Origin: an uncultured Gemmatimonadota bacterium
GTDB lineage: Bacteria > JAAXHH01
Assembly (NCBI GenBank): GCA_951812955.1
Contig: OX638340.1
Coordinates: forward strand, 2,976,001-3,040,000
Reading direction: 5' to 3'
Length of the DNA stretch: 64,000 bases
Shown here: positions 5,123-45,420 of the stretch, one piece after another
Layout of the letters: each line of letters starts with the position of its first letter
Position numbering within the stretch: the first letter of the stretch is position 1
Made by a program: the position numbers and the translations under genes
The notes under the pieces: generated by a model
Database searches by the model: none
What the model was told of the DNA's origin: nothing
The model's input: only the letters and a program-made list of their open reading frames with translations

Positions 5123-5423
5123 CGACCACCTCCATTTTTTCGAGTATGTACTCGTACTTGAGATAGGACACCTGGTATTCCGTACCCGGATAGGCCGGGT
5201 ACTGCTGGGGAAACTGTACGACCCGCCAGCCGTCTCTCATGGCGTCTACCACCGAATCGTAAGGTGGATTCGTAGCGCCGCCGGAGTCGGCCGCATCGCC
5301 CGAGGTGTGCCGCTCGTCGGCAGACGCGGTCCCATCGTATTCGGACCAGGCCACGACGCCGGCATGCAGGTCGGGAGTCCGCAGATAGAGCACCAGCAGC
5401 TTCTGACGTGATTCTGACATCAT
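5115..5423 (-). CDS. hypothetical protein (102 aa), translationally coupled to PhyH-family gene
   Basis: 8-nt overlap with downstream dioxygenase gene and 13-nt gap to upstream gene; no recognisable motif. Confidence 0.35.
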   Translation of the reverse strand: MMSESRQKLLVLYLRTPDLHAGVVAWSEYDGTASADERHTSGDAADSGGATNPPYDSVVDAMRDGWRVVQFPQQYPAYPGTEYQVSYLKYEYILEKMEVVDG

Positions 5424-18000: not shown

Positions 18001-21000
18001 CAAAGCCTGACCATTTCGATCCGCTCGAATGTCGGCATGCCCACCGAACCGGCGTAAGCGCGGTTCGCCAGGCCGGCAGCGCCTTCGGCCGTTTCTACAT
18101 CCGCACCGTCCTGGCGGTCCATGCCGTCCAACGACGGGTCCACACCGGCCGTCGCACCGAGGATTTCGGTGTCCAGCGGTATGCGGTACATGCGCCAGCT
18201 GTCCGGATTGCCCCAGTTGGAGCGATCCAGGTCGCCGCCGGCTACGAGCACCGTGTCATCGTGGTCCGGACTCAGATTCACGGCGAATTCGAAATAGTCG
18301 TTTTGTAAGTCCAGAAAGCCGGAGTAATCGAGATCTTCGGTATCGGGCCGACGGTTCTGATCCGGATCGTTGGCATTCACTTCCGGTCCGTTGATTTTGC
18401 TGTAGTCGACCTGGTCGACCGGCACGGAGCCACCCTTCGTACCTTTGAAGTGGAAGTTGTCCCCGTGTGGATCGGGGTTGCTCACCGGATCGTAACCGGC
18501 CTCCTCTTCGTCCCTCAGACCGTCCATCCCGATGTCTTCTTCCGGTTCCAGGAGGTTGTTGCCGAATCCGCCACTCCGGTCGTCTTCCGTATCCAGACTG
18601 TCGTTACCGTTGACATCCTCGCTGATTGCCCCGAGGTCGATATGCAGTTCGCCGCGATTCCCGTTCACCCATATCTCGATGAACCGGCTGCGCGTCTGGT
18701 CCACGTTGGCCCCGGAGAGCGGATGCATCAACCCGGCCCACCTGTTCAGCACGTCGCCCTGGCCGTTTTCCCGGCCGGGCGCGCTGAAGGTCGAGTCCGC
18801 AGACAAGCCGCCCCAGCGAAGGTCGGGTTCCGTGGGATCGTATTCCATGATCAGCACGTGCTGCAACTGGTCGCGGCCCGTGACCTCGCGGGTGGGGTAA
18901 ATCTGGCGGACATCGACCTGTTCGAGGGGATTGTACCAGATCATCCGGCCCCGCTGTTGGTGTTCGTATCGATCGGGTGGGCTGGCCGGCCGCCAGCCGC
19001 TCCGGCGCACGCCCAGGTCTGTTTCCTCCTTGCTTCCTTCGAAATCGTCGATAAACCCGTCGCCCAGGATATTGGGGTTGGGAACGCTCTGAGCCAGTTC
19101 GGCCTCGATGATCAACGAGGACGATTCGTCCGCCAGGTCCGCGGGGGAGATGAAATCCACGAAGGAAGTCAGAAAGTCAGGTTCGAACGCCAGCCGCGTA
19201 TCGATCCCCCACATCATGTACCGTCCGGTTTCACGGCCGATCCGGGACTTCTGCTCCAGGGACTTGTCGGACCGGTATAGAAATGTGCCTTTAATCCAGG
19301 ACTGTTCGCTGAACTGGTATTCACCCTGAAATCCCATCAGGGTGTTCGACACAGGCTTGAAGAACGGGGCAAACTGGAACTGGACGGTCACGTCCGCATC
19401 CGGGGTCAGAGCCTCCTCGTTCGTGAAACGGATCTGCCCGACTTCGTAGAGAATGATGTAATCGGTTCCCCGCTGCAGTTGCTGGCCGTTCAATCGCACG
19501 ATTTCACTCCCCTCGATGATATTGGTCCGCCCGAGGGAGTACTGGGACAACTGGTTACGGTATTCGACTTCAAGGAAGTACTTGTTCAGCCTGCTGTGCT
19601 GGCTGAAGATCTGTTCGCTCGAAAGATTATAGAACCCGGGCGTTTCATCGGGAAGGCCTTCGCCCTGCGTATTCGGATAGGCCAGTTGGCCGGCGGATGT
19701 TACGGTCAGGGCGGGCGCGAAGGGATACTGGTCCGGGAAAATCAGTTCCCCGCGTTCGAAATTGAACAACGCATAGTCGATGTCGACGATCCGGTCGGGC
19801 TCGGAACCGGGGTCCACCCCCCTCCGGTCGAGCCCCAGCAACTGGATGAAGGGCGTCCCGTTCTCGTCGACCTCACTGTGCTCGCCCTCGGACTGCAACT
19901 GGTAGATTCTCAATTCGAAATTGTTCGGATCGATGTCCGTCTGGCCGAGGTAATACACATTCCGCCACTCGTACTGCCAGGTGTCCCACTGGGCGGGATC
20001 GTCCGGGGCGGCGGGAGGGCGCTCCTGCTGCCGCTTGAGCAGGCGCAGCAGCGGGACGTCGCCTTCCAGTCGGCCGTACTTTTTGACTTCTCCGTTCTGG
20101 TTCACGGTCTCGTAGTATACTCCGAGCATGTCGTCTTCTTGCAAGGGCGTGTTCAACGCGATGTAGCCGAATTGCTGGTTTACGTAGAATTCGTCGGATT
20201 CCAGGTACCTGAACTTCCCTTCCACGAATTCACCCGCCTCGGAACCCTGGATGAGCACATCCTCCGAGTCGTACACGGGGGGATCCGGATAGGCATTGGC
20301 ATTGACCAGCTTGGCCTGGTTGGTCAGGGTGAGCCGTCCCGACACGTAGACCTGGATGACACGCACCGAGTCATCGGGCGCGACGCGGGACCCGTTTACG
20401 TCCCTGCGCGAGAAATCGCGGCGGTACTGCTCATCAATGAAATAGTAGGTCCTGCGCCTGAAGTCGAGGTCCCGGATCACCCGCTGAGACCCTTTGGTCC
20501 CGGCCTGGAACGTGGCGGATTCTCCTTCTCCCTTCTCCTGGCTGGCGATCGCGGTCAGGTGGAAGCTGCCGAGTTGGCCCGTCATTTTGACTCCAAACAA
20601 TCCGGTGTGCTGCTGCGTATAGCCCGTGAACTCCGTGTTCTTCAGATCGAGAGAAACGTTTCCAGCCTCGAAACTCTTCAGGATGCCGTTCCCATCCCGG
20701 CCGTCGTCGTAAACGTCCTGGTACCGAATGGCAAGGTTGTTGTCGAGGTCGGTGAACGCTTCGCTGTTCTGCTTGATGTTCACCTCGACCTTCTGGCCTA
20801 TGTTCCCGGAAACGGTAAACTCCTGGTTCTGCTTCATGGAAATGTTCGGTGCGCGAGAGAACCGGTTTGTCGCCGTACTCGCGCTGCCTTCCGTCCATTC
20901 GCTGGCCATGTCCATCTCGATGCGCTGGTTTCCGAGAATACGAATAACGGGCGTGCCGCCGCCCAGAAAAGTAGGCAGGTTCACCGGCAGATCGAGGGTC

Positions 21001-21401
21001 AGAAGGCCTTCCTGGCTCAGTCGGGTTTCGGTGTCGAAGACGTAGGACAGCACGGACGTTCGCCACAGTTTTTTGAATTGAGCCGCACTGCGAAGTCGGT
21101 AATATTGGTCAAAAGAGAGGACCAGGGGCACGCGGCGGCCAAGCCCCCGTTCTGCGTCTATGAAAGCCAGTAGCAGGAGGTCGGGATAGACGACGGTCCG
21201 GCCGCCCAAAGGCAACGGCCGGTCGGAGAGGGTACGCAGTGCCGGTCTGTTTTGCCCGCGGGCGATTTCGTCGACCTCATCGAAAGCAACGACGTGCAGG
21301 CGTGCGCTTTCGAGCCGGATCGCCGGGCCTTCCGCCAGTGCGGAGAAGGTCCACAGGGATATCAGCACGTGGCTGAAGACAATCGGACAAATGCGTTTCA
21401 T
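15099..21401 (-). CDS. giant (2100 aa) secreted/outer-membrane protein, SprA-like (type IX secretion translocon / cell-surface protein SprA family) candidate
   Basis: Signal peptide MKRICPIVFSHVLISLWTFSALA; 2100 aa with beta-rich composition throughout. Size, architecture and lineage context resemble SprA of FCB-group bacteria. Assignment is by recollection, not alignment. Confidence 0.4.
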   Translation of the reverse strand: MKRICPIVFSHVLISLWTFSALAEGPAIRLESARLHVVAFDEVDEIARGQNRPALRTLSDRPLPLGGRTVVYPDLLLLAFIDAERGLGRRVPLVLSFDQYYRLRSAAQFKKLWRTSVLSYVFDTETRLSQEGLLTLDLPVNLPTFLGGGTPVIRILGNQRIEMDMASEWTEGSASTATNRFSRAPNISMKQNQEFTVSGNIGQKVEVNIKQNSEAFTDLDNNLAIRYQDVYDDGRDGNGILKSFEAGNVSLDLKNTEFTGYTQQHTGLFGVKMTGQLGSFHLTAIASQEKGEGESATFQAGTKGSQRVIRDLDFRRRTYYFIDEQYRRDFSRRDVNGSRVAPDDSVRVIQVYVSGRLTLTNQAKLVNANAYPDPPVYDSEDVLIQGSEAGEFVEGKFRYLESDEFYVNQQFGYIALNTPLQEDDMLGVYYETVNQNGEVKKYGRLEGDVPLLRLLKRQQERPPAAPDDPAQWDTWQYEWRNVYYLGQTDIDPNNFELRIYQLQSEGEHSEVDENGTPFIQLLGLDRRGVDPGSEPDRIVDIDYALFNFERGELIFPDQYPFAPALTVTSAGQLAYPNTQGEGLPDETPGFYNLSSEQIFSQHSRLNKYFLEVEYRNQLSQYSLGRTNIIEGSEIVRLNGQQLQRGTDYIILYEVGQIRFTNEEALTPDADVTVQFQFAPFFKPVSNTLMGFQGEYQFSEQSWIKGTFLYRSDKSLEQKSRIGRETGRYMMWGIDTRLAFEPDFLTSFVDFISPADLADESSSLIIEAELAQSVPNPNILGDGFIDDFEGSKEETDLGVRRSGWRPASPPDRYEHQQRGRMIWYNPLEQVDVRQIYPTREVTGRDQLQHVLIMEYDPTEPDLRWGGLSADSTFSAPGRENGQGDVLNRWAGLMHPLSGANVDQTRSRFIEIWVNGNRGELHIDLGAISEDVNGNDSLDTEDDRSGGFGNNLLEPEEDIGMDGLRDEEEAGYDPVSNPDPHGDNFHFKGTKGGSVPVDQVDYSKINGPEVNANDPDQNRRPDTEDLDYSGFLDLQNDYFEFAVNLSPDHDDTVLVAGGDLDRSNWGNPDSWRMYRIPLDTEILGATAGVDPSLDGMDRQDGADVETAEGAAGLANRAYAGSVGMPTFERIEMVRLWITEVDEPVKTRIASINIVGNQWQEDFTGAITDSTGNPVPASALSAAGETFDVAVKNTYDNPGEYTSPPGAIIEYDRVTGLQNKEQSLIITYTNLQPHHSAQAYRTLFSDQDYTLYNTLRLYIHGSDNFEPGRSPEFFIRFGSGEFDYYEYRTRVLPGWDEANHLRVVFDDLTVLKSETETARRTVTTTDTTYAVTLSDGISRPVRFKDGPRNEGLTLAIVELEGNRQYRVLGSPALARVRHITVGIYNPYDQVLVGGELWLDELRAGDVRRDRGLAGRLKFDADLADVLSVFGTVRSVGSHFRRIGGEESGSRSTLINFSSLLNLGNMLPEDWGLSIPLRLRWKNDLRLPRLQVGSDIVLLNQEQREAQRTENNDRSFSASFSKRIGSRNPFVAWTLERFRFDFTSTSYFRHSVSRIDTSGSYRARLHYNLTPRSKIQWPILRWMPLPESISGLTFNPLPVRLELFSEVNRDRRIYLNRARQSVVAGNTGETEAASTDRGERFIRYLNRNIRAIMEPFGSLRMNYNLAVSNDMKSDSTVSFTKLEFGPETSYRQNLGVDYRPGITTWFRPSYNFTTSYAENRNPQLQLVGASPSARTITFSNQQGVRTNVNLARMVSNVLGESSRRSSPEDAGWFRRNVSDRLAAVLSNFTPVTLNYTISRNQNFFNAVSRPTLRERMGLSDSFSVLFDTLGSGGGVTGIQRNQESEANRSSFNLGTGIRLRGATLSIRPTWVSTHNRSSNLNRKQNNTTWPEVNLRWSPNLRSMGDFGRSFRRIELSSGYSRRKGKNTDLGQVAPAVAQGSAGDTDPGEAGITRTTTTSLSPLIGFVFDLNAGVVIRGNFTTLDGLTEFGRNATDQKQQNRSLTVAVDYRLRSGIRIFGKRTSGDINARLQYTRNTNETLISRIAGDFQPSNGQNQNRFSVTTDYRFSRYIRGGVTLEFTNTLNVITRQKRIRRGGGLWTEFVFN

Positions 21402-30545: not shown

Positions 30546-30766
30546 TTAGAAGGCTAGTATATTCGCGAGGTCATTCTACGATGGGGATCGTTTTCCGTCA
30601 ATGGTATTCACACCTTTTGTGCTTGAACATTCCCGCCGCCGCGTGTACTATGCTGGATCGTTCTCCACGTTTATTTATGAATCGATTCCATTAAAACGTC
30701 GCAGGCTGGATCACGGGCCTGAGCGTTGCATACTGATCTGGATCATCACCTTACGGACTTCCATCG

Positions 30767-32221
30767 ATGTCATCCGAAACCACCAACGAAGCCACCCGTC
30801 CACTCGGCAAGCTGTCGCCCCTGAAGATGGCCGCCGTGCCCACCTTCGCGGGCATGCTGAAATACATCGGTCCGGGCATCGTCTGGGCCGGGCTGGCGCA
30901 GGGCAGCGGCGAGCTCATCTGGTGGCCCTACCTGACCGCCAAGTACGGCGCGGCCTTCATCGGCCTCCTCATCCCGGCCGCCCTGATGCAATACTGGGTG
31001 AACGTGGAGATCGCCCGGTATACGATGATGACCGGGGAGACGGCCCTGACGGGTTTCAGCCGCATCGGCAAATGGTACGTTTCTTTGATCTGGGTGGGCG
31101 TTTTTCTGGAGAACATCTGGTTCGGCGCCTACGCGTCGGCGGGCGGGGGCGCGCTGGCGGAGTTGACCGGCTTCCCGGACGGATGGACGGTCCGCGGCCA
31201 GTCGCTCTTCTGGGCCTATCTGACCATCGGGATCTACCTGGTGGCCCTGTTCATGGGCCGCGTGGTCTACCTGATCGTGGAACGGCTCACCATGGCCGTG
31301 GTCGTCATCACGATCGTGGGAATCGTCTTCGCCGTATTCCAGCAACCCGTGCTGGCAGTGGCGGGCGAGTTCTTCGGCGTCCTGCTCACGCCCGGCTACC
31401 ACAGGCCCGCCAACTGGGATCCAGCGGACCTGTCCACGGTGCTCACCGCCATCGTATTCGCCGGGGCCGGCGGCTTCGGACAGCTCTTCCTCTCCTACTG
31501 GATGCGGGACAAGGGCGTGGGGATGTCGTCCTATATCGGACGTATAACGAGCCCCCTGCGCACGGCGCCGGAGGCTATTTCAGCTACGGGATACGCTTTC
31601 GAGGATACAGCGTCCAACCGGACGAACTACCGGAAATTCATGCGGTACCTGCACCTGGAATCCGGACTCGGCGTCACATTGAATCTGGTCACGACCGTCA
31701 TCATGTGCTGGCTGGCCTGGGCCCTGCTGAAGCCGCAGGGCATCGTTCCCCAGGGCTGGGAAATCGCCGTGGTACAGTCCGCATTCTTCGAGGTCAGTTG
31801 GGGCGCTATCGGCAAGATTATCTTCCTTGTCATCGCCGCGGCTTTCCTCTGCGATGCCTGGCTGCAGTCCACCGACGGCTTCGCCCGCATGCAGGCCGAC
31901 TTCATCTACGCCAACGTGAAGCGGGCGCGCCGGTTTCATTTCCGTACGCTGTATTATGGTTTTGTCGTGGTTTTCACCATACTGACGACGATTACGCTGC
32001 CCCTTGCGCAGCCTGGGGATCTGCTCATCATACGGGGCGTCATCGCCTTCATGGCCATGGGACTCTTCTGTCCCGGACTGATCTACCTGAATTACGTGCT
32101 CGTCCCCCGGGCTTTCCCTTCGTGGACCAAACCCCATCCCCTCACCCGGGTCATCATGGTCGCCATCACCGCGACCTATATCTCCATCGGGCTCTGGTAC
32201 ATATTCGTTCGCCTGATTTGA
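30767..32221 (+). CDS. polytopic membrane transporter, Nramp-superfamily-related (divergent metal-site motif)
   Basis: 484 aa, about 11-12 TM. First TM has GPGIVWAGLAQGSGEL, aligning to the Nramp GPGFLxxxAYxDPGN region with DPGN replaced by QGSGE. Confidence 0.35.
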   Translation: MSSETTNEATRPLGKLSPLKMAAVPTFAGMLKYIGPGIVWAGLAQGSGELIWWPYLTAKYGAAFIGLLIPAALMQYWVNVEIARYTMMTGETALTGFSRIGKWYVSLIWVGVFLENIWFGAYASAGGGALAELTGFPDGWTVRGQSLFWAYLTIGIYLVALFMGRVVYLIVERLTMAVVVITIVGIVFAVFQQPVLAVAGEFFGVLLTPGYHRPANWDPADLSTVLTAIVFAGAGGFGQLFLSYWMRDKGVGMSSYIGRITSPLRTAPEAISATGYAFEDTASNRTNYRKFMRYLHLESGLGVTLNLVTTVIMCWLAWALLKPQGIVPQGWEIAVVQSAFFEVSWGAIGKIIFLVIAAAFLCDAWLQSTDGFARMQADFIYANVKRARRFHFRTLYYGFVVVFTILTTITLPLAQPGDLLIIRGVIAFMAMGLFCPGLIYLNYVLVPRAFPSWTKPHPLTRVIMVAITATYISIGLWYIFVRLI

Positions 32222-32295
32222 TCGTCCCTGCCACAAGCCGGAACCCGAGCCGGACCGGCGCAGTAATCGGCAGGTTTCGCGGTTATCGCGGTGAG

Positions 32296-32395
32296 AACGC
32301 GGTCCGGCGTGGTAACCATGCGCATTGGTCCGGCGCGGTAACGGCACGCATTGGTCCGGCGCGGAAACCATACGCATTGGCTCCGGCGGTCTTAC
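32296..32395. repeat. three to four tandem ~26-bp repeats (cgcattggtccggcgcggtaac) between convergent genes
   Basis: Units at about 32316-32344, 32345-32370 and 32371-32395, plus a partial upstream copy. Confidence 0.6.
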
Positions 32396-33777
32396 ACGGC
32401 CGCAGGCGCCACCCGCGCGGTACGTTCCTCTGCGATCCGGAGTCCGGCCTCGATGATTTCCAGGGATTCGTCGATCTGGGCTTCGGTAATGGTGATCGGC
32501 GGCATGAATCGCAGTACCTGGGAACCCGACAGTTCCATGAAGCGCAGGCTCAACGGATCCTTATTCTGCATCCTGGGCACGATGGGCAGCCAGAGTCCGT
32601 TTTCGTAGCAGTACTCCGTCACCATGGCGGCCCCTTCGAAATTGGGCGTCCTACTCCGCTTGTCCGTCACCAGTTCGAGGCCGAGGCAGAGACCGAGCCC
32701 CCGGGCTTCACCCACGATTTCGAGTTCATCTTCCAGCACCTTGAGCCGGTCCATGAAGTAGTTCCCCACGACCCGGGCGTTTTCCACCAGGTTTTCCCGG
32801 TCGACGATTTCAATATTGGCCAGGCCGGTCTCGCAAAGGAGCGGGTCTCCGGCGTGGGACGAGAAGGGCATGAATCCCTTTGCCACCGCGGCGTCCGCGA
32901 TCTCAGCGCTGGTCATGACCGCGCACAGGGGCACGGCGCCACCGAGTCCCTTGGAACAGGTGACGATATCGGGTACGAAATCGAAGTGCTCGAATGCAAA
33001 CCACTTGCCCGTCCGCCCGAAGCAGGTCAGGGCCTCGTCCGCCACCGTCAGGATATCCCGTTCCCGGCAGATTTCCACGATCCGCTGGATCCACTCCTTT
33101 GACGGCACGATCTGTCCCGCCGCGCTCATCAAGGGTTCGAAGAAGAAGGCCGCGGGCCGTCCGGAAGTCGACGAGTCGATCACGTTCTCGGCCGCGTCGG
33201 CGCATCCCAGGTTGCAGCAGGCTTCATCCCGGCAGAACTGGCAGCGGTACTCGTAGGGCGTCGGGATGAACGAGGCGCCCGTGGGCATCGGTCCGTACCC
33301 TTCCCGTAGCATGCCGCCCCGTCCGGTGATGGACGCGCTGCCGTAGGACTGGCCGTGGTAGCCGCGCATGAGGGCGATCACCTCGAACCGGTCCGTGTAT
33401 TTCCGCACTAGGCGCAGCGCCATTTCGTTGGATTCGGATCCCGTGCAGGCGAAGAAGGACTTCTGTAACGGGTCCGGCGCGATCTCGGCCATCTTCTTGG
33501 CCAGCAGCACCTCGGACGGCGCGATGAAGGTCGTTCCCACCTGGATGATCTTGTGGGCCTGATCGCAGAGGGCCTTCACGTATTCCGGGTGGGAATGGCC
33601 CAGGGTTACGCACAGTTGACCCGATTGAAAATCGATGAATCGCCGGCCTTCCACGTCCCACATGTAAAGCCCGTCGCCGCGCTCGGGCACCAGGGGCGCG
33701 GTACGCATCGGATGTCTCAACAGGTACTGGTTGCCGAGTTCAAGCCAGCCCGCATTTGTGGTGGGTAGCGACGCCAT
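32392..33777 (-). CDS. class-III pyridoxal-phosphate aminotransferase (omega-/acetylornithine/GABA aminotransferase family)
   Basis: TCSKGLGG PLP-lysine motif, DEALTCFGRTG, 461 aa. Confidence 0.8.
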   Translation of the reverse strand: MASLPTTNAGWLELGNQYLLRHPMRTAPLVPERGDGLYMWDVEGRRFIDFQSGQLCVTLGHSHPEYVKALCDQAHKIIQVGTTFIAPSEVLLAKKMAEIAPDPLQKSFFACTGSESNEMALRLVRKYTDRFEVIALMRGYHGQSYGSASITGRGGMLREGYGPMPTGASFIPTPYEYRCQFCRDEACCNLGCADAAENVIDSSTSGRPAAFFFEPLMSAAGQIVPSKEWIQRIVEICRERDILTVADEALTCFGRTGKWFAFEHFDFVPDIVTCSKGLGGAVPLCAVMTSAEIADAAVAKGFMPFSSHAGDPLLCETGLANIEIVDRENLVENARVVGNYFMDRLKVLEDELEIVGEARGLGLCLGLELVTDKRSRTPNFEGAAMVTEYCYENGLWLPIVPRMQNKDPLSLRFMELSGSQVLRFMPPITITEAQIDESLEIIEAGLRIAEERTARVAPAAV

Positions 33778-34088
33778 GATCCGTCTCCTGGAGTAAATGA
33801 CCTTGGGGAATTTGCTCCCGATTTTCGGGTAGGAAAGGGTAAGGGCATGCTAAATCACCGGGCAAGGCGTGTCAATACAATTCGCCGGTGCCGGAGGCCT
33901 GAGAATGCGTTGCATTGCGGCTGGTCCCGCTCTATCTTCAATCAGAGCGGTATGGCGCGTTCTGTCAGAGGGACTATGCCGCGTTCGACCGAATGTCTTC
34001 GGACCACGAAAAAAACAGCCCCACCGATCGGATCGCATGATATTCGTGCATAACGCCATTTGAGAAAGTTTATGATGTCAGGGACGAT

Positions 34089-34427
34089 ATGGTGATCAAT
34101 TCAAGTAATGCAGAACATTACAAATGGGGCAAAGACTGTGATGGATGGCACCTCCTGAATACCACTTCCTTGAGCGTAATCAAAGAAAAGGTACCCAAGG
34201 GTGGCGTGGAAGAGATGCACTATCACATGTATGCACAGCAGTTATTCTATGTTTTGCAGGGTGTCGCCACCATTCAACTGAGGGAGGAGACCTACAGGGT
34301 GCCGCAAGGCGAGGCAGTACATGTCCCACCGAATACGCCGCACCGATTGGAGAACGCCGGGGAAGAAGACCTCGAATTCCTCGTCATATCTCAACCCCAT
34401 AGTCACACTGACAAGATAAAGCGCTGA
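34089..34427 (+). CDS. cupin-domain protein
   Basis: 112 aa; HYHMYAQQ...VHVPPNTPH metal-binding cupin motifs. Confidence 0.6.
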   Translation: MVINSSNAEHYKWGKDCDGWHLLNTTSLSVIKEKVPKGGVEEMHYHMYAQQLFYVLQGVATIQLREETYRVPQGEAVHVPPNTPHRLENAGEEDLEFLVISQPHSHTDKIKR

Positions 34428-34487
34428 CTTCAGGGGAACCGCGAGCGAGTTCATCGGATACCAAACCTTGAAACACCCTTTAAACCT

Positions 34488-35582: not shown

Positions 35583-35657
35583 ATGCTCGATCGGAAGAAC
35601 ACGGGCTGACAAGGCAGCAATCGATTACACTAGTCGGACTAAAAGAGCGGGCTGTTC

Positions 35658-35873
35658 TCACTGACGACTATTGGAATCGTTGTACGTTACGAGGTCCGCG
35701 ATCGCAATCCGGATCATTCGGATGTCTTCCTTGATGTCTTCAAGCGTCGTTTTTACTCCACTTTCAAACCCCTCTCTCTTCCCCATCCAAAGGCACAGTT
35801 TTACTATAGCCCCGATTATAGCGATCAACAGTACGGTAACAACCGCCGGCAACCACGAAGGCATCGATTCCAT
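35658..35873 (-). CDS. small hypothetical membrane protein (71 aa)
   Basis: Single N-terminal TM helix; sits in a low-GC, ORF-poor stretch. Confidence 0.25.
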   Translation of the reverse strand: MESMPSWLPAVVTVLLIAIIGAIVKLCLWMGKREGFESGVKTTLEDIKEDIRMIRIAIADLVTYNDSNSRQ

Positions 35874-36462
35874 CGGGTTTCCTTTCTGAGCAAATTTACC
35901 GTTCCGTGCGAAGGTTCACGAGAAGAATAGCTTGATCAGGATCGCGACGGTCATGACCGACTGGCCAATTGCTACCGTTTCGATGCGGGATAGGCGCTTG
36001 TCTCTATCTTTTCAATGATACCTTCCAGGCGTCCGATACGTCCTTCATGGTTCGTACTTTCGGCCGGCATGAACCAGTTTCATTCCTTCGGTGGCACTCG
36101 TTGTGCGGTGCAGAAGGTTTGAATTACAAGTTTCCCTGACCTCGTCTACTTTGTTTCCACCCTGTTTAAAAACCCCGTATATCCCGGAGTTTCTCACTTA
36201 TTTCAGCTTGCAGGCTACCCATTTCAGTTCCCATACACTTCGTCATACGCCCACGATGTCAGAGGTTCCTTTTTCCCTTAGTCGGGGAATGGCCTTGAAT
36301 CTCGTAATTAAAAAATGAAATCTCAGCGTACCGTTAAGTCGTCCGTGTTATCCTGGTCTTGTGGTCTTTAAAAGCGCTGGATAGAACCTCGTAGAATCAA
36401 AAGTGTCTTGGGCGGTCCATTGATTTGTAAGCGCATAGGTATTGCCCGATATTGGAAAGAAT

Positions 36463-37179
36463 TCATTGTCTTGAATGAAGTCTCTCAGGCAAGGGAAGAT
36501 TGGATTCCACCTGTACCAACCGGTCTTCTTCCAATACGTATCCACTCAGGGACCCGCCATAGACACATCCCGTGTCCAAGCCGATCACGTAAGGCGAACC
36601 GTCTCCCCGGCGTTTGGCGACAAGGCCGCCAGGCGCGTCGTGGCCGAAAATGATTAGTTTACCCGAGGGCTCATAGGCGTCATGCCATCTCGGTCCCACG
36701 ATGCCTTCCACGGGAGGCCAGGTTCGGATGACGAGAAACTCGTCCCGGGTAGTCCCTTGCAGGCCTTTTACCGGGTTGATGCCCGCGTGGACCAGGAGGA
36801 AATCGGGTTCGTCGATCCACAAGGGAAGCGATTCCAGCCAGGGGATCAGGGCTTCCGCGAAGGGTGCGAGGGCTTCCAGGGTTTGACGGTATACATGCCA
36901 TTTTACGGGCACCGGCTCTCCGGACAGGTGCCTGCGTAGCCGATCCGGCAGCCTGACATCGTGGTTGCCGAGGACCATCCTGGCATTGGTATCCTGGATC
37001 AGCTTCCACACTGCGACGGGATCCGGACCCTTGGTAAAAGCGTCGCCCGTCAGATAGAGGAGATCCGTATCCCGCTGGAATTCCAGTTTGGAGATCAGTT
37101 GTTCGAATTCACGGGCGCAGCCGTGAATGTCGCCGATGAACAGGGTACGCAAGGGAATACAGGACTCCGGAATGATCAA
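36463..37179 (-). CDS. calcineurin-like metallophosphoesterase (ApaH/PrpA-like Ser/Thr phosphatase family)
   Basis: GDIHG...GD...GNHD phosphoesterase motifs; 238 aa. Confidence 0.7.
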   Translation of the reverse strand: MIIPESCIPLRTLFIGDIHGCAREFEQLISKLEFQRDTDLLYLTGDAFTKGPDPVAVWKLIQDTNARMVLGNHDVRLPDRLRRHLSGEPVPVKWHVYRQTLEALAPFAEALIPWLESLPLWIDEPDFLLVHAGINPVKGLQGTTRDEFLVIRTWPPVEGIVGPRWHDAYEPSGKLIIFGHDAPGGLVAKRRGDGSPYVIGLDTGCVYGGSLSGYVLEEDRLVQVESNLPLPERLHSRQ

Positions 37180-37385
37180 TACACCGGTATATACGGATGG
37201 ATACGACGGCCCAAATTACGTCTACCGGAGAAAACGGAAGGCCTTAGATAATGGAAGACCGGTAATTTCGACATCCTGAATTATAACCGCGCGACTCGGG
37301 GAGGGTCAAGAGAATGAACTGCCAGGTAGGGCTCAGTTTGGAATGTTGCGACTGGCTCGTTACAGAACAACGCTCCCTATAATCG

Positions 37386-37434
37386 TTGAATACAGAAAAG
37401 CCCCGCTAACTGCAACGGGGCTTTTCCTTTTTTC
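37386..37434. repeat. repeated hairpin element copy 1 (TTGAATACAGAA + AGCCCCG...CGGGGCT stem + T-run); also a rho-independent terminator candidate
   Basis: ttgaatacagaaaagccccgctaactgcaacggggcttttcctttttt; second copy at 41605-41643. Confidence 0.5.
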
Positions 37435-37664
37435 GGGACCGATCGCCCTTTTCAGTGGCCGAAGCTCCTACTCAGGGCGAACGGGAAGGTGTAACGAAAT
37501 GACCGAGACAAATGCAGGGCGGATACTGAATCGATTGCTTGCCCTGTCGGGATAACTTCCGGGGGTCACTCGATACTTGGTCTGATGGGGTACATGAGAA
37601 GGTACCCCATCTCGCCACAGGAGTCTGTCAGCGCCCTGTCTACGGGACCCGGATTATCCCGATG

Positions 37665-39188
37665 TTAACTATCCAGCGGCGCCGTGATAGCTACCGTGAA
37701 ATGAATGCGCTTGGATACCGCACCATTTACCTTCAGTTCAACGATATAGTTCTTGGACTCTGCCCCGTCCGCGCCAATACCCACTGGGCCATTTGCTATT
37801 GGCGCACTGCTATCATTCGCGATCGGGTCTGAGTCATCGAAATTCTGCGCCGTAACCGTCACAGTAACTACACCGCCTGCTGCCGTTTCTGTGGCAACTA
37901 ACCCAACTGTTTCGGCCTTATTGCCACTGGTGACGGTGACGCCTAATGCGTTTTCATCGAAACCATCGATTCGTGCGTCAGAAATCGCATTATACAGTTC
38001 GACGGTAAACGTGGTGGAAGTGTTTCCGTCCTTCCACGCCGCCGTAGCCTGGTCTCGTTCCCACGTGAAGGTGCGAGTTTCCGGCTCGGTGTAGATTATG
38101 TCACGTGTGATGCTGGAACCGGAAACGCTGATATCGACGGAAGCCGACGAACCTTCGATAGTAGCTGAAATGGTAGCATCGCCACTGCTCTTTCCGGAGA
38201 TTGTTGCCGCGGCCCCGGCGGCCATCACAAACTTACCTGCCATTTCATGGCCTTTGGGGTGTTTATCGGCGCCAACACCAGCAGAGCCCGTATCACTAGC
38301 CCATTCGTAATTACCCATAGCACCCAAATTGGGTACCGCCTTATCGTCAGAATCAAGCGCACTGGCAGTAATCTTTGTGGTTTCACCGATGGCCAACGGG
38401 ATCAGGCTATCCTTGCTGAGCTTGACCTTGGCAACCGCATTGGAAACATTCACCGACAACTCACCGGCAACGAGATGGGTAGGTGACTTGAAGGATACCA
38501 TCGATGGACTGTACCCGTCATCTGCATCATAATTCGATGCAAGAGCAGTAATTACCCCATCTTCAACTGAAATACCCTCCTCTTCCTCGTCGATAGACCA
38601 AACCAGGTCAGCGCCTTCAATTATGCTGCCATCCTGTGTGCGGACTGCAGCTTTCACTGTAGCTTCCTGGCCTACTCTGAGAAGGATGCTCGTGCCGTCT
38701 CCAATTCTTGCCGGAGTAAGTTCTTCCAAAGCACCATACGCTTCGGACGAGTGCTCAAGCACCATAGCAGCAACATGGTCTGCTGCCAAGATACCGAGAA
38801 TCTCTTCCGGGCTTAAACCAGGAGGCAGTGTAGCTGCTTCACCTTGCGGACCCTGCTCACCTTGCGGACCTGCCGGCCCCGTGGCACCATCAGCGCCATC
38901 AGCGCCATCAGCGCCTGCCGGACCTGCCGGCCCCGTGGCACCATCAGCGCCATCAGCGCCATCAGCGCCTGCCGGACCTGCCGGACCCGTGGCACCATCA
39001 GCACCTGCCGGACCTGCCGGACCCGTGGCACCATCAGCACCTGCCGGACCAGTCGAACCCTGCGGGCCTGCCGGACCTGCCGGACCGCCCGGACCGCCCG
39101 GACCGCTCGGACCCGCGGGGCCGGTCTTACCCTCGCATCCCATCAGGGACAAACCGAAGGCCAATACAGCAATTATGAGGTAATGCAT
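37665..39188 (-). CDS. collagen-like (GXY-repeat) lipoprotein with C-terminal Ig-like beta-sandwich domains
   Basis: Lipobox LSLMGC. About 110 aa of uninterrupted Gly-X-Y triplets ([17 protein letters not shown]...) encoded by tandem DNA repeats at about 38830-39120. Remainder rich in T/S/V beta-strand repeats (Big_2-like, inferred). Confidence 0.6.
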
Positions 39189-39697
39189 TGTGTTCTCCCG
39201 TTTATGGAAACACTACTAATTAGGATTGACGAAAATTACGAAACTTGCCTATATCGCCTCCTTTCCCGCTAATGGATCGGTTGACTTAAATGCATTACAA
39301 GACTGCTAATTACAGACTCCTAGACTGGCGGATTTCAGTCCGCATTTAGATACTTTTCCCCTTAAATATGGTTAAATTGAGCCATCAGGAAGTGGTTGGC
39401 TCTCTTGTCCGGTTGATGCAAACGAGCGCCACACACGGCTGCAATCAGCCACCACACCCTGTACTGGCTGGGAGGTAGGAATCGTGTTACGTCAGGCAGG
39501 ATCAGGTGCGTCAGGTAAGGGAAAACGGGGGTGTTGAGATAGGGCGAAGTTGTTACTATCTATCATATCTACTGCCAAGGTGAATTGGCTTGAGTCTACC
39601 CTGCACGCAGCATATATTGACACGTGAGGCATATATCGACGAGGCTGTTGAGACGCAGGAGAACCGGAGATTTACCTAAGCTTTAGCGAGGTTCGAT

Positions 39698-41272
39698 TTG
39701 CGCAGAATTGGCCTATTCGGCTGGGGCATCGTAGCGCCCCGTTCGCCCAACATGGAAGCCTTTTCCCGAAACCTGGAGCAGTCGGAAAGCTGGCTTGCGC
39801 CTTTCGAAGGGTTCGGCCCCAACAACTTCCTGGTCGGGGAACCCGAATTCGACTTCCGGGACTACCGGGAATGGATCGATGCCCGATTCCCGTCGAACCG
39901 GTACCCCCGCCTGGTCGACAAGATGGACCCCACCACGCTGCATGCAGTCGGAGCCTTCATCCAGGCGTTGGAACAGAATCCGGGACTGGAAGGGGAACTC
40001 AAGGCGCTGGGAACGGCCGCCCACGTGTACATTGGTACTGGTGTGGGCAATATCCCCACGATCAGCCGGATCAGTATGGAGCTGTACCGGGCCCAGCGCG
40101 CGTGGGACCGGTTCTGGGGTTCGGCCGAACGGAATGCCCGGCTTCGCGCGTATCTCACTCGGCATGACGACGAAGACGAGGGCGAAGCCATCCCGCCCCA
40201 TCCTGAAACCACACCTTCCGCGGCGCGAGACCAGGCCGAAGAATCATGGAATGTCTACTGGACGTCCCAGTCTGAAGAGTTGAGGTCATACCTGGAGACG
40301 CTCGCCAGGATCGAGGGGATGAACGTCGAGGGGACCGTCGAATCAGGCAAGCTGAAACTCATCCGCGAAAAGCAGCGCCGCAAGCAACAACTGCAGGACG
40401 ATTGGGGCGCGCCCGAACCGCCATGGGAATGCGTCTCGGCCGACCTGATCTGGAACATCCATAACACGCCCGCGTCGCAGGTCACCATGATGGGGCAGAT
40501 TCACGGGCTGTCTCTTGCGCCCGTGGCCGCCTGCTCCACCTTCGGCGTGTGCCTTAAACTCGGCATGGACGCCATCCGGCGCGGCGAAGCGAAGGCGGTC
40601 GTCGTCGGCGCCACCGATCCGCCGCCCACGGCCCTGCTGGTGGGCGCCTTCTACCGCGCCCGTGTTTCCGCTGCAGACGGCGCCGTTTCCAAACCCCTGA
40701 CCGGGCTGCGCGGCACCCACGTCTCGGGCGGCTCCGTGCTGTGGATCATCGGGGACTACGAATACATGACGGAGAAGGGGTTCAATCCGATCGGGATGGA
40801 GCCGCTGGCCGTGGGCGTCAGTTCCGACGCCGACCATATCATCACGCCATCGAAGGAAGGACCGCAGATAGCGGTCCACCAGGCTATTGCGGATGCCCGC
40901 GTCTCCCCCGAAGACATCGCCTCGTGGGACCTGCACGCGACGGCGACGCCCGGCGATTTCCTGGAAATGGAGAACCTGCTCGAAATGGTGCCCGGCTCCG
41001 TGACGGTTACCGCGCGGAAAGGCACCTTCGGCCATGGCATGAGCGCCGGAGGAGGGTGGGAACTGACGGCGCAATACCTCGGCTACGAACGGGGCGCGCT
41101 ATATCCCACGCCCCTTTCCCAAGACGAGGTGAATCCGGAAATCGGCGGACTTCACTCCCGGTTCGTCTACGATACATCCTGCCCGCTCCCCGAAGGTATC
41201 GCCGGCAAGCTGTCCATGGGGATCGGCGGCATCAACGCCTGTGTCATTTCCCGGCCGCTTAAAGATGACTGA
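39698..41272 (+). CDS. beta-ketoacyl-ACP synthase (KAS I/II, thiolase fold) homolog with ~110-aa charged insertion
   Basis: Catalytic triad context AACSTFG (Cys), HATATPGD (His), FGHGMSAGG (His) and C-terminal GIGGINACV. Acidic/basic insertion (RHDDEDEGE...KQRRKQQLQDD) in the N-terminal half has no counterpart in FabF/FabB. Starts at TTG. Confidence 0.6.
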   Translation: MRRIGLFGWGIVAPRSPNMEAFSRNLEQSESWLAPFEGFGPNNFLVGEPEFDFRDYREWIDARFPSNRYPRLVDKMDPTTLHAVGAFIQALEQNPGLEGELKALGTAAHVYIGTGVGNIPTISRISMELYRAQRAWDRFWGSAERNARLRAYLTRHDDEDEGEAIPPHPETTPSAARDQAEESWNVYWTSQSEELRSYLETLARIEGMNVEGTVESGKLKLIREKQRRKQQLQDDWGAPEPPWECVSADLIWNIHNTPASQVTMMGQIHGLSLAPVAACSTFGVCLKLGMDAIRRGEAKAVVVGATDPPPTALLVGAFYRARVSAADGAVSKPLTGLRGTHVSGGSVLWIIGDYEYMTEKGFNPIGMEPLAVGVSSDADHIITPSKEGPQIAVHQAIADARVSPEDIASWDLHATATPGDFLEMENLLEMVPGSVTVTARKGTFGHGMSAGGGWELTAQYLGYERGALYPTPLSQDEVNPEIGGLHSRFVYDTSCPLPEGIAGKLSMGIGGINACVISRPLKDD

Positions 41273-41604
41273 CGGACGGAAATCCCTCCTGTCTTAGCTG
41301 AGATAACAAGGGCTCCCGGTTTGTCGGACGTGGGCAGGGCTCGATTTACGGGTTTTCCACCTGGTCGATGCAACTCTTTATGCCTTTATCCACGACAAGC
41401 TGGTGGCAACGCAATGGCGCCGTCTTTACCGCGCCAATAGCCCTCTTCGCACTAATGACTTATTTGCATGTTTCCATGATTTAACACTGCCAGCCCGTTC
41501 CGGAAACTGCCTCCGGCAGATCAGACGAAGTAAGGAAACAGCAGGAATAGTATAGTGTTCTCCGTTTATGGGCACTAACGCTTTCCTGACCAACTGATTA
41601 ATCC

Positions 41605-41643
41605 TTGAATACAGAATAGCCCCGTGGTCACCACGGGGCTATT
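41605..41643. repeat. repeated hairpin element copy 2
   Basis: ttgaatacagaatagccccgtggtcaccacggggctatt; shares the TTGAATACAGAAWAGCCCCG...CGGGGCTWTT pattern with copy 1. Confidence 0.5.
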
Positions 41644-42232
41644 CACTTTCAATATGATTATGCTGAGCATCAGGTATGAGAAAGTTTGAAAATTGAACCA
41701 ATTACCAGACAGTTTGTGATTTGATGTTGACGTTGGATCAATTACTAAATAACATGGATGTGTATTTTACGTGATCGTACTTTTGTAAGAGAATTAAAAT
41801 AAAGTATAATACGAATAATGATGAAAAAATATAAGTTTTTTCTTGACTTATTACTCAACGTAACCATATATATACGGATAAATATCACAAAAAAATCATT
41901 TTTTGTCACGATATGGTTGACTTGGCCCTGCAACCAAGCGTACCTTACAATCTAAAGATTCAACAGAAGATAATAAGGAAGCCGTCATGACGGGTTAACA
42001 TGCCCTAAATTCAACCGCGAGCACACAGTCGATCCCGTTGTAGGGGACGCAGCCCAAACCCCCGGGCAACGGTATTCGATCCTGCAGACTACGCCGTCCG
42101 AAATGCGTTAAACCGTCTCATTCATCACACAGGAACATCGAGGCAGGAGTTAGCGGCTTAATTTTCTGCCTATCTCACCCTGAAGAACACGATATATCGA
42201 TCTCGCCCATGAGAGCGTGATGAGCCTCTTGC

Positions 42233-43192
42233 GTGGAGATAGTACCGGGTACCATGCAGCTACGCATTTCCTTACAGTCTCCCCTCGACAGCAAGGCCGA
42301 TCCGTTGTCCATTGATGTCGCGCGCTTGCTGCATGCCAGCATTGCGCCGAACACGGCGAAGGCGTACGGCGATGCATTGCGCAAGTTGTTCGAGCATCTG
42401 GATGGGCAGACACTGACCGACGCTGCGCTGGCCGGTTACCTGGCGCACTTGTATGCCAAAGGACTGGCGCCGGCTTCGGTCACGGTAGTGGTACAGGCCG
42501 TCCGTTTCTGGGAAAAGCTGGAAAACCGCCCGTCCAGTGTCGAGTCGTTGACGAGTCGAACACTGGCCGGAATCCGACGCGAAGGTCGAAACCGGGGCCG
42601 CGGCCAGGTAACCGGGCTGACCCGAGAAACGGTCAATCTCATGGTTCAGAACGCCATCAATACCGACACACTGGCCGGACTGAGAGACGCCGCTCTGTTT
42701 CGTGTAATGAGCGATGCCCTGTTGCGGATTGGGGAAGCCGTCGCCATCGACTGTGAGCACATCACCACCGAGTTCGACGGGAGCGGGCGGCTGATGTTGC
42801 TTCGAAGCAAGACCGACCAGGAGGGAAAGGGTACCAGTCTCTTCCTGACCAACCGTACCGTCGACGCGATCCGGCAATTGCAGCATGGAGCGGGGTTCAC
42901 CACCGGCCCCCTCTTCCGCCGGATGGTGAAGGGCGACCGAATGTGCGACGGCCGTCTGACGGTGGACGGCGCCCGGCTGACTATCAAAGCGTCTGCGGAG
43001 CGGGTCGGTATCAAGGGCGTGAGCGGCCACAGTCTTCGCATCGGAACCGCCCAGGAACTCGCGCAGCGCGGCGCATCCCTGGTGGAATTGCAGAACGCCG
43101 GCCGATGGACCGACAGCCAGATGCCCGCGCACTACACCCGTGAGCAGGCCGCGGGCAAGGGTGCCGTCGCCCGCTTGCTGGGGATTGACTGA
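42233..43192 (+). CDS. tyrosine site-specific recombinase (phage-integrase / XerCD family)
   Basis: Catalytic-domain motifs R...HSLRIG...RWTDSQMPAHYTRE (R-H-R-Y); preceded by a ~580-bp AT-rich region. Confidence 0.75.
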   Translation: MEIVPGTMQLRISLQSPLDSKADPLSIDVARLLHASIAPNTAKAYGDALRKLFEHLDGQTLTDAALAGYLAHLYAKGLAPASVTVVVQAVRFWEKLENRPSSVESLTSRTLAGIRREGRNRGRGQVTGLTRETVNLMVQNAINTDTLAGLRDAALFRVMSDALLRIGEAVAIDCEHITTEFDGSGRLMLLRSKTDQEGKGTSLFLTNRTVDAIRQLQHGAGFTTGPLFRRMVKGDRMCDGRLTVDGARLTIKASAERVGIKGVSGHSLRIGTAQELAQRGASLVELQNAGRWTDSQMPAHYTREQAAGKGAVARLLGID

Positions 43193-43200
43193 GGGGAGAC

Positions 43201-43280
43201 TGAGTCGTGAGTCTCTACGGTGAGTCGTGAGTCTCTACGGTGAGACGCGGGTCTCTACGGTGCGTCGTGGAACGCTACGG
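43201..43280. repeat. four tandem 20-bp repeats (tgagtcgtgagtctctacgg and variants)
   Basis: Direct tandem copies at 43201, 43221, 43241 and a partial at 43261, immediately after the integrase stop codon. Confidence 0.7.
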
Positions 43281-43302
43281 AGGAGACGTCACGCGTGCGA
43301 TA

Positions 43303-45420
<2,118 letters not shown>

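Follow-up and report, generated by a model that had tools for sequence, protein, structure and literature searches.

Organization of the locus

We analyzed a stretch of 64 kb (contig OX638340.1, positions 2,976,001 to 3,040,000; hereafter, the window) from an uncultured bacterium of a lineage that carries the NCBI labels Gemmatimonadota or Latescibacterota. In this window, genes for a collagen-like lipoprotein, a beta-ketoacyl synthase (KS) and a Cre-like tyrosine recombinase stand between a metallophosphoesterase gene and a gene of the DUF255 family, together with hairpins, leader-like repeats and AT-rich intergenic DNA (Table 1). The original prediction, made from the sequence alone, took this assemblage for a horizontally acquired and possibly still mobilisable island. 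The features that it lists are real, lie at the positions it gives and are not explained by chance. We consider it likely that the region is no island and is instead a vertically inherited contingency locus, in which the recombinase would flip a promoter segment beside variable lipoprotein cassettes. In this organization, the core genes (Metallophos, KS and DUF255) are interleaved with an expandable family of cassettes, the recombinase occupies the DUF255 end, and a short AT-rich segment between inverted copies of a site, called S, separates it from the nearest cassette.

The window was compared with loci fetched from other genomes, which are coded L001 and so on. The relative L001 is 97% identical to the window. 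L026 is also close (94-95% nucleotide identity in the flanks), and the recombinase of L045 is 95.8% identical. For the KS, identity to the window is 87% in L002 and 78% in L003. The loci L021/L049 come from JAAXHH01, the namesake genome of the GTDB candidate phylum JAAXHH01, whose sources include sponge tissue.

Table 1. Positions of the features of the locus and its surroundings in the window
Feature	Position	Strand	Basis or remarks
Cupin-like open reading frame (ORF), 112 aa, in a strain-specific segment	segment 33956..34485, ORF 34089-34427	+	GC 0.50, GC at third codon positions (GC3) 0.58
Core metallophosphoesterase (ApaH-like), left backbone gene	36463..37179	-	Pfam Metallophos 2.8e-16
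H1, predicted intrinsic terminator of cassette 1 and conserved 3' flank	37380..37426	-	11-bp G+C stem, then UUUUCUGUAUUC
3' untranslated region (UTR) structured RNA of cassette 1	37427..37664 (with H1 about 285 nt, 37380-37664)	-	pseudoknot
Cassette 1 ORF, 507-aa collagen-like lipoprotein	37665..39188	-	Pfam Collagen 2.6e-12
R1, Shine-Dalgarno (SD) leader of cassette 1	39190..39207	-	CCATAAACGGGAGAACAC, then AATG
S1, recombination-site-like block	39352..39381	+	ACTTTTCCCCTTAAATATGGTTAAATTGAG, ~160 nt upstream of cassette 1
Beta-ketoacyl synthase, conserved ~520-aa family	39698..41272	+	ketoacyl-synt N and C domains
R2, orphan leader without a following ATG	41555..41571	-	found only in the window, L001, L026 and L045 (more diverged)
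H2, surviving predicted terminator of lost cassette 2	41599..41644	-	perfect 15-bp palindrome, with the deletion junction at its right arm
Shortened invertible segment, 218 bp, GC 0.28	41652..41869	.	S2' 41652-41667 (+), S0 41854-41869 (-)
Conserved recombinase leader	41870..42253	+	alignment to relatives
Cre-like tyrosine recombinase, 312 aa from ATG	42254..43192	+	Pfam Phage_integrase 4.1e-12
Tandem repeat, 20-bp unit	43201..43280	.	between the convergent recombinase and DUF255 genes
Core DUF255/thioredoxin-domain gene, right backbone gene	43303..45420	-	Pfam Thioredox_DsbH 2.7e-77; syntenic in all relatives

A segment found in both orientations

The site S (ACTTTTCCCCWTAAATATGAWTAGAYYGAGC) lies ~150-170 nt upstream of nearly every cassette in the arrays, always in one orientation, and a single opposed copy stands by the recombinase gene. 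Among 29 aligned upstream regions, which otherwise diverge and are all devoid of a -35 box, the core of the site does not vary. Comparison of the ~960 nt that separate the recombinase from its nearest cassette revealed a segment of ~390-400 bp that is inverted in L040, with collinear flanks, relative to L004, L005, L021 and L026. The junctions show an exchange at TAAATATGAWTAGA, inside the inverted repeats S2 and S0, which in the relatives have the core TAAATATGAWTAGAYYGAG in common. A metagenome scan for one end of the segment returned only two further loci, L045 in the common orientation and L044 flipped. Hence, both orientations of the segment exist across the relatives, and the breakpoints coincide exactly with the S sites. 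With L004, L005, L007, L021, L026 and L045 as the reference, L040 and L044 have the segment flipped, and about 10 loci are unflipped. The two flips are independent, because the closest match of L044 is L026 (91.6%), which has the other orientation.

The orientation of the segment changes the neighborhood of a promoter-like box. Only in L040 and L044 does a TTGACT stand 16-17 nt from a CATATT in the 5' UTR of the cassette. In the common orientation, the TTGACT faces the recombinase gene and lies beside a TATATA. The site S1 of the window, read in the sense of the cassette, supplies the -10-like CATATT without a -35, and a promoter scan found no sigma-70-like promoter for cassette 1. The paralogs that occur as singletons at other loci have a fixed promoter (TTGACT-N17-TATAAA) and no S motif in the scan. 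This promoter lies ~240 nt upstream in L010, L023, L024, L029, L032, L035, L037 and L038, and some of these singletons (e.g., L023 and L038) have an S-like AAATATGATTCGATTGA in the opposite sense after the -10. We also considered that a second inverted site could lie between S1 and the KS gene and rejected it, since a motif scan found none.

These observations suggest a mechanism. The recombinase would invert the segment between S2 and S0, and TTGACT, the sole good -35 box, seems to lie on this segment. Paired with the cassette -10 CATATT in one orientation, the box would turn the lipoprotein ON. In the other, it would pair with TATATA and drive the recombinase gene, leaving the lipoprotein OFF. 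The outcome would be the phase-variable display of a surface protein.

A resident Cre-like recombinase

The tyrosine integrase gene that had been predicted is indeed present. Its product matches the catalytic domain Phage_integrase (PF00589) with 46.7 bits, above the Pfam cut-off of 27.1, and the ORF also opens at a GTG at 42233. The closest solved relative is Cre (E 4e-11, residues 67-316). In the phmmer alignment, the residues R, K, H, R, W and Y found in LLRIGE, RSKTD, GHSLRIG (H and R), GRWTD and AHYTR align to Cre, where we take their counterparts to be R173, K201, H289, R292, W315 and Y324. The protein is far from the XerC and XerD models TIGR02224 and TIGR02225 (40.0 and 48.3 bits for cut-offs of 335 and 330), and its best NCBIfam match to an integron integrase, NF040815, has 51 bits for a cut-off of 220. 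The possibility that it is an inactive XerC/D paralog thus fits neither these scores nor the catalytic residues that align to Cre. Relatives of the recombinase encoded on plasmids were rejected, all being less than 30% identical.

Homologs that are 77-96% identical, nearly all of them of 312 aa, are common in genomes labelled Gemmatimonadota. The gene has the same position in L001, L004, L005/L006, L007, L021/L049, L040, L045, L050 and L051. In every locus fetched through recombinase homologs, it is convergent with the DUF255 gene and divergent from at least one collagen-like gene. The similarity extends upstream of the gene, since positions ~41820-43192 of the window align at 76-81% to the recombinase gene and upstream region of L004, L005 and L007. 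Against seven orthologs, the ratio of nonsynonymous to synonymous substitutions (dN/dS) is 0.11-0.20. The synonymous divergence (dS) relative to L005 and L007 is 0.47 and 0.44, and that of the KS in the same genomes is 0.44 and 0.47. Because the gene occupies the same spot in at least 10 diverged relatives, with a dS equal to that of the KS and a low dN/dS, the data point to vertical inheritance and no recent arrival. By its sequence, it is a resident, intact and functional-looking recombinase. Its clade probably derived from the integrase of an element and was fixed later, because a 59%-identical homolog in another genome stands in a mobile-element-like context.

This has a bearing on another explanation of the flips, namely that they are rare accidents of homologous recombination between short inverted repeats and that the recombinase is an unrelated resident or a decaying integrase. 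The small number of flipped assemblies (2) and the lack of a biochemical link would agree with it. Yet the two flips are independent and have identical breakpoints, purifying selection acts on the recombinase, the repeat divides the predicted promoter into two parts, and recombinase, switch and array strictly co-occur. We therefore regard an accident as highly improbable.

A family of collagen-like lipoprotein cassettes

Cassettes have a common layout: a 5' UTR with the site S, followed by the leader R (SD), an ORF for a protein with a lipoprotein signal, a collagen stalk and a hypervariable C terminus, and then a 3' RNA of ~285 nt and the terminator H. The protein of cassette 1 has a signal with a lipobox, a Gly-X-Y stalk and a variable C-terminal region of 389 aa. 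The original prediction described the stalk as a run of about 37 triplets making up a third of the protein; the run is there, with 33-34 triplets (aa 17/20-118), and amounts to ~20% of the protein. The Ig-like beta domains said to follow it were not confirmed, the protein having only a sub-threshold match to Big_1 (E 0.055); paralogs in the relatives have weak matches to Big_2. What remains of the predicted adhesin-like collagen mimic is plausible: the sequence features fit a surface lipoprotein with a collagen-like stalk. A phage origin was rejected, since the PHROG tail-fibre matches cover the Gly-X-Y run only (aa 15-120). The NCBIfam models of LPXTG collagen-like adhesins gave 55.9, 45 and 44 bits for cut-offs of 325, 400 and 500, and the protein has no C-terminal LPXTG, having an N-terminal lipobox instead.

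The family includes at least 44 distinct paralogous proteins with an invariant N terminus and 45-147 Gly-X-Y residues. Their C termini are 23-32% identical or unrecognisable. GC3 is low throughout these 44 cassettes (median 0.565); being a family-wide trait, it does not indicate recent transfer. With a conserved 3' motif as the query, a scan of representative genomes revealed 36 loci, one of them in JAAXHH01, in metagenome-assembled genomes that are all titled Gemmatimonadota/Gemmatimonadetes, “Latescibacterota” or just “bacterium.” The cassettes are single or form tandem arrays of up to four, with a period of 2.0 kb, and most of them flank the KS gene on one side or both, with 0-1 per locus to its left and 0 to at least 4 to its right. 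Since L026 and L009 are without cassette 1, cassette content turns over on either side of the KS.

Other types of variation were found among the cassettes. L049 and L050 have identical recombinase proteins and ~100% identical flanks and differ only in how many collagen repeat units the adjacent cassette has. A similar change in collagen length separates the window from L001. In L004, pairs of small genes on the opposite strand lie between array cassettes (1754-2289 and 4632-5221), in the place that the KS has in other genomes; one pair is made of a gene for 100 aa and a DUF2283 gene, the other of a HigB-like toxin and a helix-turn-helix protein.

The presence of an S site before so many cassettes invites the idea of a multi-site shufflon, where the mobile -35 could be carried to any cassette through an inversion with S0 and a distal S as its ends, which would also flip the genes in between, the KS among them. 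Under this model, the array would serve as a library of surface proteins from which one alternative is expressed at any time. Such a library could explain why the distal cassettes are intact, with an SD, a conserved 5' UTR and an invariant S core and no -35, and why S is absent from the singleton paralogs that own a fixed promoter. However, the relative orientation of KS and cassettes is canonical in all of the about 15 assemblies in which both are present, and we saw no long inversion. We thus hold a multi-site shufflon to be unlikely.

A predicted terminator and a structured RNA end the cassettes

The hairpin element had been noticed twice in the window, and there are exactly two copies, with a 26-nt flank that is 92% identical at 37380 and 41599 (none is expected by chance). 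In H1, the arms 37395-37405 and 37416-37426 are 100% complementary and the fold has -25.8 kcal/mol (z -4.5). In the relatives, H ends every cassette, and 5 of the pairs of its stem have compensatory changes. Hence, H is the predicted intrinsic terminator of each cassette. The terminator scan missed H1 because its loop exceeds 8 nt. The hairpins are thus a terminator family, found at the 3' end of every cassette and unrelated to the ends of an island. A reading as att or attC sites was tried: a GTTGAAT resembles the R' core of integrons. Only one of the two sides of the stem has it, it is CTTGAAT in the second copy, and the element is the terminator of cassettes in all relatives. We rejected this reading.

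The 18-mer noted at 39190 is there as well and recurs at 41555 with a 1-nt deletion. Its counterpart in the fetched loci, the leader R, adjoins the ATG of almost every cassette. We rejected an extended homology around the pairs of hairpins and 18-mers, since lenient local alignments gave noise beyond the cores.

Every stop codon is separated from H by ~245 nt of conserved and highly structured RNA, which in most array copies starts 2-3 nt after the stop. In the window, its minimum free energy is -116 kcal/mol (z -5.3). We tested a model made of a long-range closing helix, a pseudoknot and the terminator on 50 distinct copies (alignment A3, L004-L043). In these copies, 92.9% of the cells are paired, compared with 39-52% when the partners are slid; 29 of the 73 pairs change on both sides, and none of 500 shuffles reached these values. 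In the helix of the pseudoknot, seven pairs covary. There are frequent G-U pairs, so the structure is specific to one strand, in the sense of the cassette mRNA. The copies fall into two subtypes, depending on the presence of the first variable hairpin. A stretch of the RNA that does not vary, CUUCCCGUU, is complementary to AACGGGAG (SD) of the cassette leader. No Rfam family matched at gathering score anywhere in the window; searched against Rfam 15 in its own right, the structured RNA had no match at gathering score either, and E values up to 10 gave terminator-like partial matches only. The covariation thus gives good support to the view that this pseudoknotted element of ~285 nt is a structured RNA tied to one gene family and new to Rfam. 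With 50 distinct copies, it offers a concrete target for RNA biology. A role like those of the RNAs of diversity-generating retroelements, retrons or bridge-RNA systems was set aside, as neither a reverse transcriptase nor a gene of IS110 type was noticed in the gene calls of the fetched loci.

A partly decayed putative switch in the window

The two relatives L026 and L045 help to understand what happened in the window. Both have, in this order, the KS, a short spacer, an orphan R, 27 nt, an intact cassette (H-RNA-ORF-R-S2), the switch and the recombinase. The window and L001 lack ~1.8 kb of this arrangement. The join lies at a CTTTTCC microhomology that is common to the right arm of the terminator and the outer flank of S2, and L045 keeps the RNA, the ORF and the leader between its equivalent of the H2 hairpin and S2. 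The alignments show a deletion, at this microhomology, of the switch-adjacent cassette 2. Its terminator survives as H2, whose arms (41614-41628 and 41630-41644) are 100% complementary. The orphan leader R2 is, by the same comparison, the relic of an older cassette that was also lost. The original prediction took the second 18-mer as a sign of an internal duplication or rearrangement. This 18-mer and the second hairpin are indeed relics of a rearrangement, being an SD leader and a cassette terminator and not att sites. We also considered that R2, the 27 nt and H2 could be the junction of a circle or an empty attachment site and rejected it, as L026 and L045 show that this is the normal 3' neighborhood of an intact cassette.

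The switch itself is shortened. Compared with the ~390-bp segment of the relatives, that of the window is without ~200 nt of the interior, and S2' and S0 match at 13 of 16 positions as inverted repeats. Its -35, the TTGACT at 41843-41848, points toward the recombinase. Because cassette 1 has an S site and no -35, its expression is probably weak or absent, barring help from recombination or a different promoter. The locus in the window is thus partly decayed.

These junctions are also informative on a possible integron-like platform, where the recombinase would excise and insert whole cassettes between directly repeated S sites, creating the differences in their number and position, and inversion would be a side reaction. 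Several traits are reminiscent of such a platform: S stands in one orientation before almost all array cassettes and only once, beside the recombinase, in the opposite one, the recombinase is transcribed divergently from the array, the number and placement of cassettes vary widely, and pairs resembling toxin-antitoxin systems are interspersed in L004. However, the resolved boundaries of the indels are not at S. The segment of cassette 1 extends from ~37320 to 39625, well beyond S1, and the loss of cassette 2 is a microhomology join at a terminator. Moreover, the recombinase falls below the NCBIfam integron and Xer cut-offs, we found nothing like an attC site, the element at the 3' end is strand-specific, rich in G-U and behaves as RNA, and a duplicated KS fragment beside H in L005 (see below) suggests homologous or illegitimate recombination. 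Cassette exchange by the recombinase at S is, in our opinion, rather improbable.

A proposed phase-variable contingency locus

Taken at face value, the architecture is that of a fim-like invertible promoter with an adjacent tyrosine recombinase, and we favor its interpretation as a contingency locus. Several points weigh against this interpretation. The segment is flipped in only 2 of about 12 assemblies, and the orientations were compared across genomes, not within one population; reversible switching within a population is what we infer from them. The S sites are without obvious lox-type dyad arms, and the role of the recombinase as the catalyst of the inversion is deduced from adjacency and co-occurrence only. 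The promoters are matches to a consensus in a lineage whose own promoters are uncharacterised, and the promoter scan did not list the TTGACT/TATATA pair of the window. Finally, nothing is left to switch on the cassette side in the window, so that the mechanism is vestigial here or serves only the expression of the recombinase.

A bolder version can be formulated, of antigenic variation with one promoter and many cassettes, in which the cassettes, complete except for a promoter, would each bear a site for the recombinase, a single mobile -35 would be brought to one cassette at a time and the RNA would be a new class involved in the choice, expression or exchange of cassettes. We find it possible and offer it with much reserve. 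If true, this would join a Cre-like recombinase system to a dedicated structured RNA, a combination not seen before, in a candidate phylum that has hardly been studied. In the literature, we found nothing on the locus, the RNA or phase variation in this lineage. Under the contingency-locus interpretation, the annotation as a “genomic island” gives way to the programmed variation of a cell-surface protein, which points to how these bacteria may vary their display to hosts, phages or grazers.

Core genes argue against a genomic island

The KS was thought to be part of the cargo of an island. It is a core gene: the order Metallophos/KS/DUF255 is kept in L002, L003 and L026, and its codon composition is host-like. 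There are more than 2000 full-length homologs that are 62-67% identical, across several phyla (genome labels Acidobacteriota, Thermoanaerobaculia, Holophagales, Gemmatimonadales, Zixibacteria and Krumholzibacteria). The Cys-His-His triad had been recognized correctly (C279 in AACST, H380 in DADHI and H413 in LHATATPG); it aligns to FabF and is invariant in 11 homologs from several phyla. The insertion of ~110 aa, also predicted, is real and measures ~108 aa relative to FabF (residues 123-256 of the query against 117-142 of FabF), and it is no local oddity: it is conserved across the family. Because its many invariant residues recur across lineages in the comparison of the 11 homologs, it is an ancient part of a distinct KS family. 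The fabF equivalog model TIGR03150 sets this family apart from FabF/KAS II, with 100.8 bits for a cut-off of 493.75 and only residues 253-517 aligned. The analysis thus flags a highly conserved KS family with an “insertion” that is ancient. In L046 and L048 (a Holophagales genome and another distant genome), the KS gene lies directly downstream of two tandem genes resembling those of glyceraldehyde-3-phosphate dehydrogenase. L005 has, at 1377-1644, a 268-bp duplicate of the 5' coding part of the KS gene, which is 83% identical to window positions 39759-40027 and directly adjoins the cassette 1 terminator, pointing to an earlier recombination event that included a cassette and part of the KS gene.

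The composition of the region is heterogeneous. The AT-rich intergenic stretches described in the original prediction are present: for a window mean GC of 0.60, three stretches have about 0.47-0.54 (e.g., 0.50 at 37180-37379 and 0.47 at 39189-39697), and the value drops to 0.28 at 41652-41869. The low GC does not extend to the whole segment, as GC3 is host-like in the KS and integrase genes (0.77 and 0.75, for 0.74-0.82 in core genes). Atypical composition is limited to the C terminus of the cassette (GC3 0.51), the cupin gene and intergenic DNA. The variable low-GC zone begins further left than had been proposed, at ~33.9 kb. Its left edge is the strain-specific segment with the cupin-like ORF, where L026 has 51 nt and L002 has 67 nt.

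Could a horizontally acquired and mobilisable island, bounded by hairpins and leaders, moved by the integrase and carrying the collagen gene and the KS as cargo, account for these data? L002 and L003 have the order Metallophos(-)/KS(+)/DUF255(-) with gaps of 220-260 bp and 16-43 bp and lack the collagen gene and the integrase, which are thus accessory, as predicted. The variable region of the cassettes and the intergenic DNA are compositionally atypical, and the 59%-identical homolog of the integrase is in a mobile-element-like context elsewhere. Nevertheless, BLAST comparisons with the relatives show that the extra DNA of the window consists of two separate blocks (37152-39686 and 41258-43333) with the core KS between them. 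The integrase has host-like GC3, its dS equals the KS value, and its position is fixed in at least 10 diverged genomes. The repeats are the terminator and the SD leader common to all cassettes, the low GC3 of the 44 cassettes bears no mark of recent arrival, the true boundaries are without flanking direct repeats, and the 64 kb have no tRNA or tmRNA, which the original prediction suggested looking for at the boundaries. Gene order is kept in many relatives, though not in all, and composition does not match throughout. Synteny, composition and divergence thus contradict a single acquired island, and we assign it a very low probability.

Other features of the window deserve mention. The metallophosphoesterase gene is syntenic in L002, L003, L005, L007 and L026 and has a promoter-like site at 37309-37280 (TTGACC-18-TATAAT, 11/12 consensus match). 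Smaller variable blocks in the BLAST comparisons are 33942-34487 (cupin) and 35584-36493. Within the latter, 337 bp (35924-36260) are absent from L001, with an AGA microhomology at the junction. L001 has probably lost them, because they are kept in L026 and partly in L007. The tandem 20-bp repeats predicted after the integrase stop were recovered by Tandem Repeats Finder (period 20, 3.5 copies, 87% matches), giving 3.5-4 units. L005 and L021 have 1 unit, L001 and L045 have about 2, and L004, L040 and L051 have none, and the array gave no folding signal (z 0.09 and -1.1). It is, on this comparison, a strain-variable variable-number tandem repeat. A structured or binding element was rejected, as the repeats are not conserved in the relatives and have no fold signal. 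The same gap between recombinase and DUF255 genes has an unrelated GC-rich tandem repeat in L007 (8940-9095), and it seems prone to repeat expansion. Elsewhere, the largest ORF of the window encodes 2100 aa (15099-21401, minus strand), and a tandem repeat at 32301-32388 (26-bp unit, 3.3 copies, score 125) overlaps long ORFs of opposite strands, 30601-33102 (+) and 31580-32377 (-).

Comparison with known systems

The invertible promoter segment fimS of E. coli, which is switched by the tyrosine recombinases FimB and FimE, is similar in many respects. Both have a short invertible segment between imperfect inverted repeats and an adjacent tyrosine recombinase gene. Our locus would also share with fimS the promoter on the segment, the ON/OFF control of a surface structure and an expression of the recombinase that depends on orientation. 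The differences are that the recombinase here is Cre-like rather than FimB/E-like, and that the predicted promoter is split, its -35 being within the segment and its -10 in the repeat or the flank. Furthermore, the target is a family of lipoprotein cassettes and not a pilus operon, and the site is copied upstream of many paralogs.

Multiple inversions are known in the vsa/HvsR shufflon of Mycoplasma pulmonis, a surface-protein system, and the Tsr recombinases of Bacteroides fragilis reportedly serve another such system (Weinacht et al. 2004, cited in PMC11602134). Our locus resembles these systems in what appears to be one expression site with an adjacent tyrosine recombinase and in its many paralogous genes for surface lipoproteins, each with a copy of the recombination site. 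It differs in that we saw only a local inversion of ~390 bp and none over a long range, with all cassettes in one orientation.

In Clostridioides difficile, the tyrosine recombinase RecV inverts a segment in the leader of cwpV, which encodes a phase-variable surface protein (PMC2784873). Both systems would place a phase-variable surface protein, with variable C-terminal repeats in CwpV, under an invertible segment. In that system, the promoter of cwpV is fixed and the orientation makes or removes a terminator, whereas here the segment appears to carry the -35. RecV is not encoded beside cwpV, whereas here the recombinase adjoins the switch.

At the protein level, Scl1/Scl2, Lcl and BclA also use a Gly-X-Y stalk of variable length to present a variable globular domain at the cell surface. 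The cassettes differ from them by their lipobox instead of LPXTG anchoring and by an N-terminal collagen part, next to the membrane anchor.

Integrons (IntI, attI and attC) have in common with the locus a recombinase divergent from an array of same-orientation cassettes of variable length, and a structured element that ends each cassette. Here, though, all cassettes are paralogs from one family and bring their own leaders, the recombinase does not reach the cut-offs of the IntI and Xer models, the 3' element is an RNA of conserved sequence rather than attC, and the indel junctions are off the repeated site.

Finally, the Cre/loxP system of phage P1 includes the closest solved relative of the recombinase, and the catalytic R-K-H-R-W-Y and the C-terminal helix motif are conserved between the two proteins. 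Their overall identity is low, S has no visible lox-like 13-8-13 dyad, and the recombinase is chromosomal and fixed in the lineage, whereas Cre comes from a phage or plasmid. If confirmed, the locus would provide a compact and testable pair of recombinase and site related to Cre.

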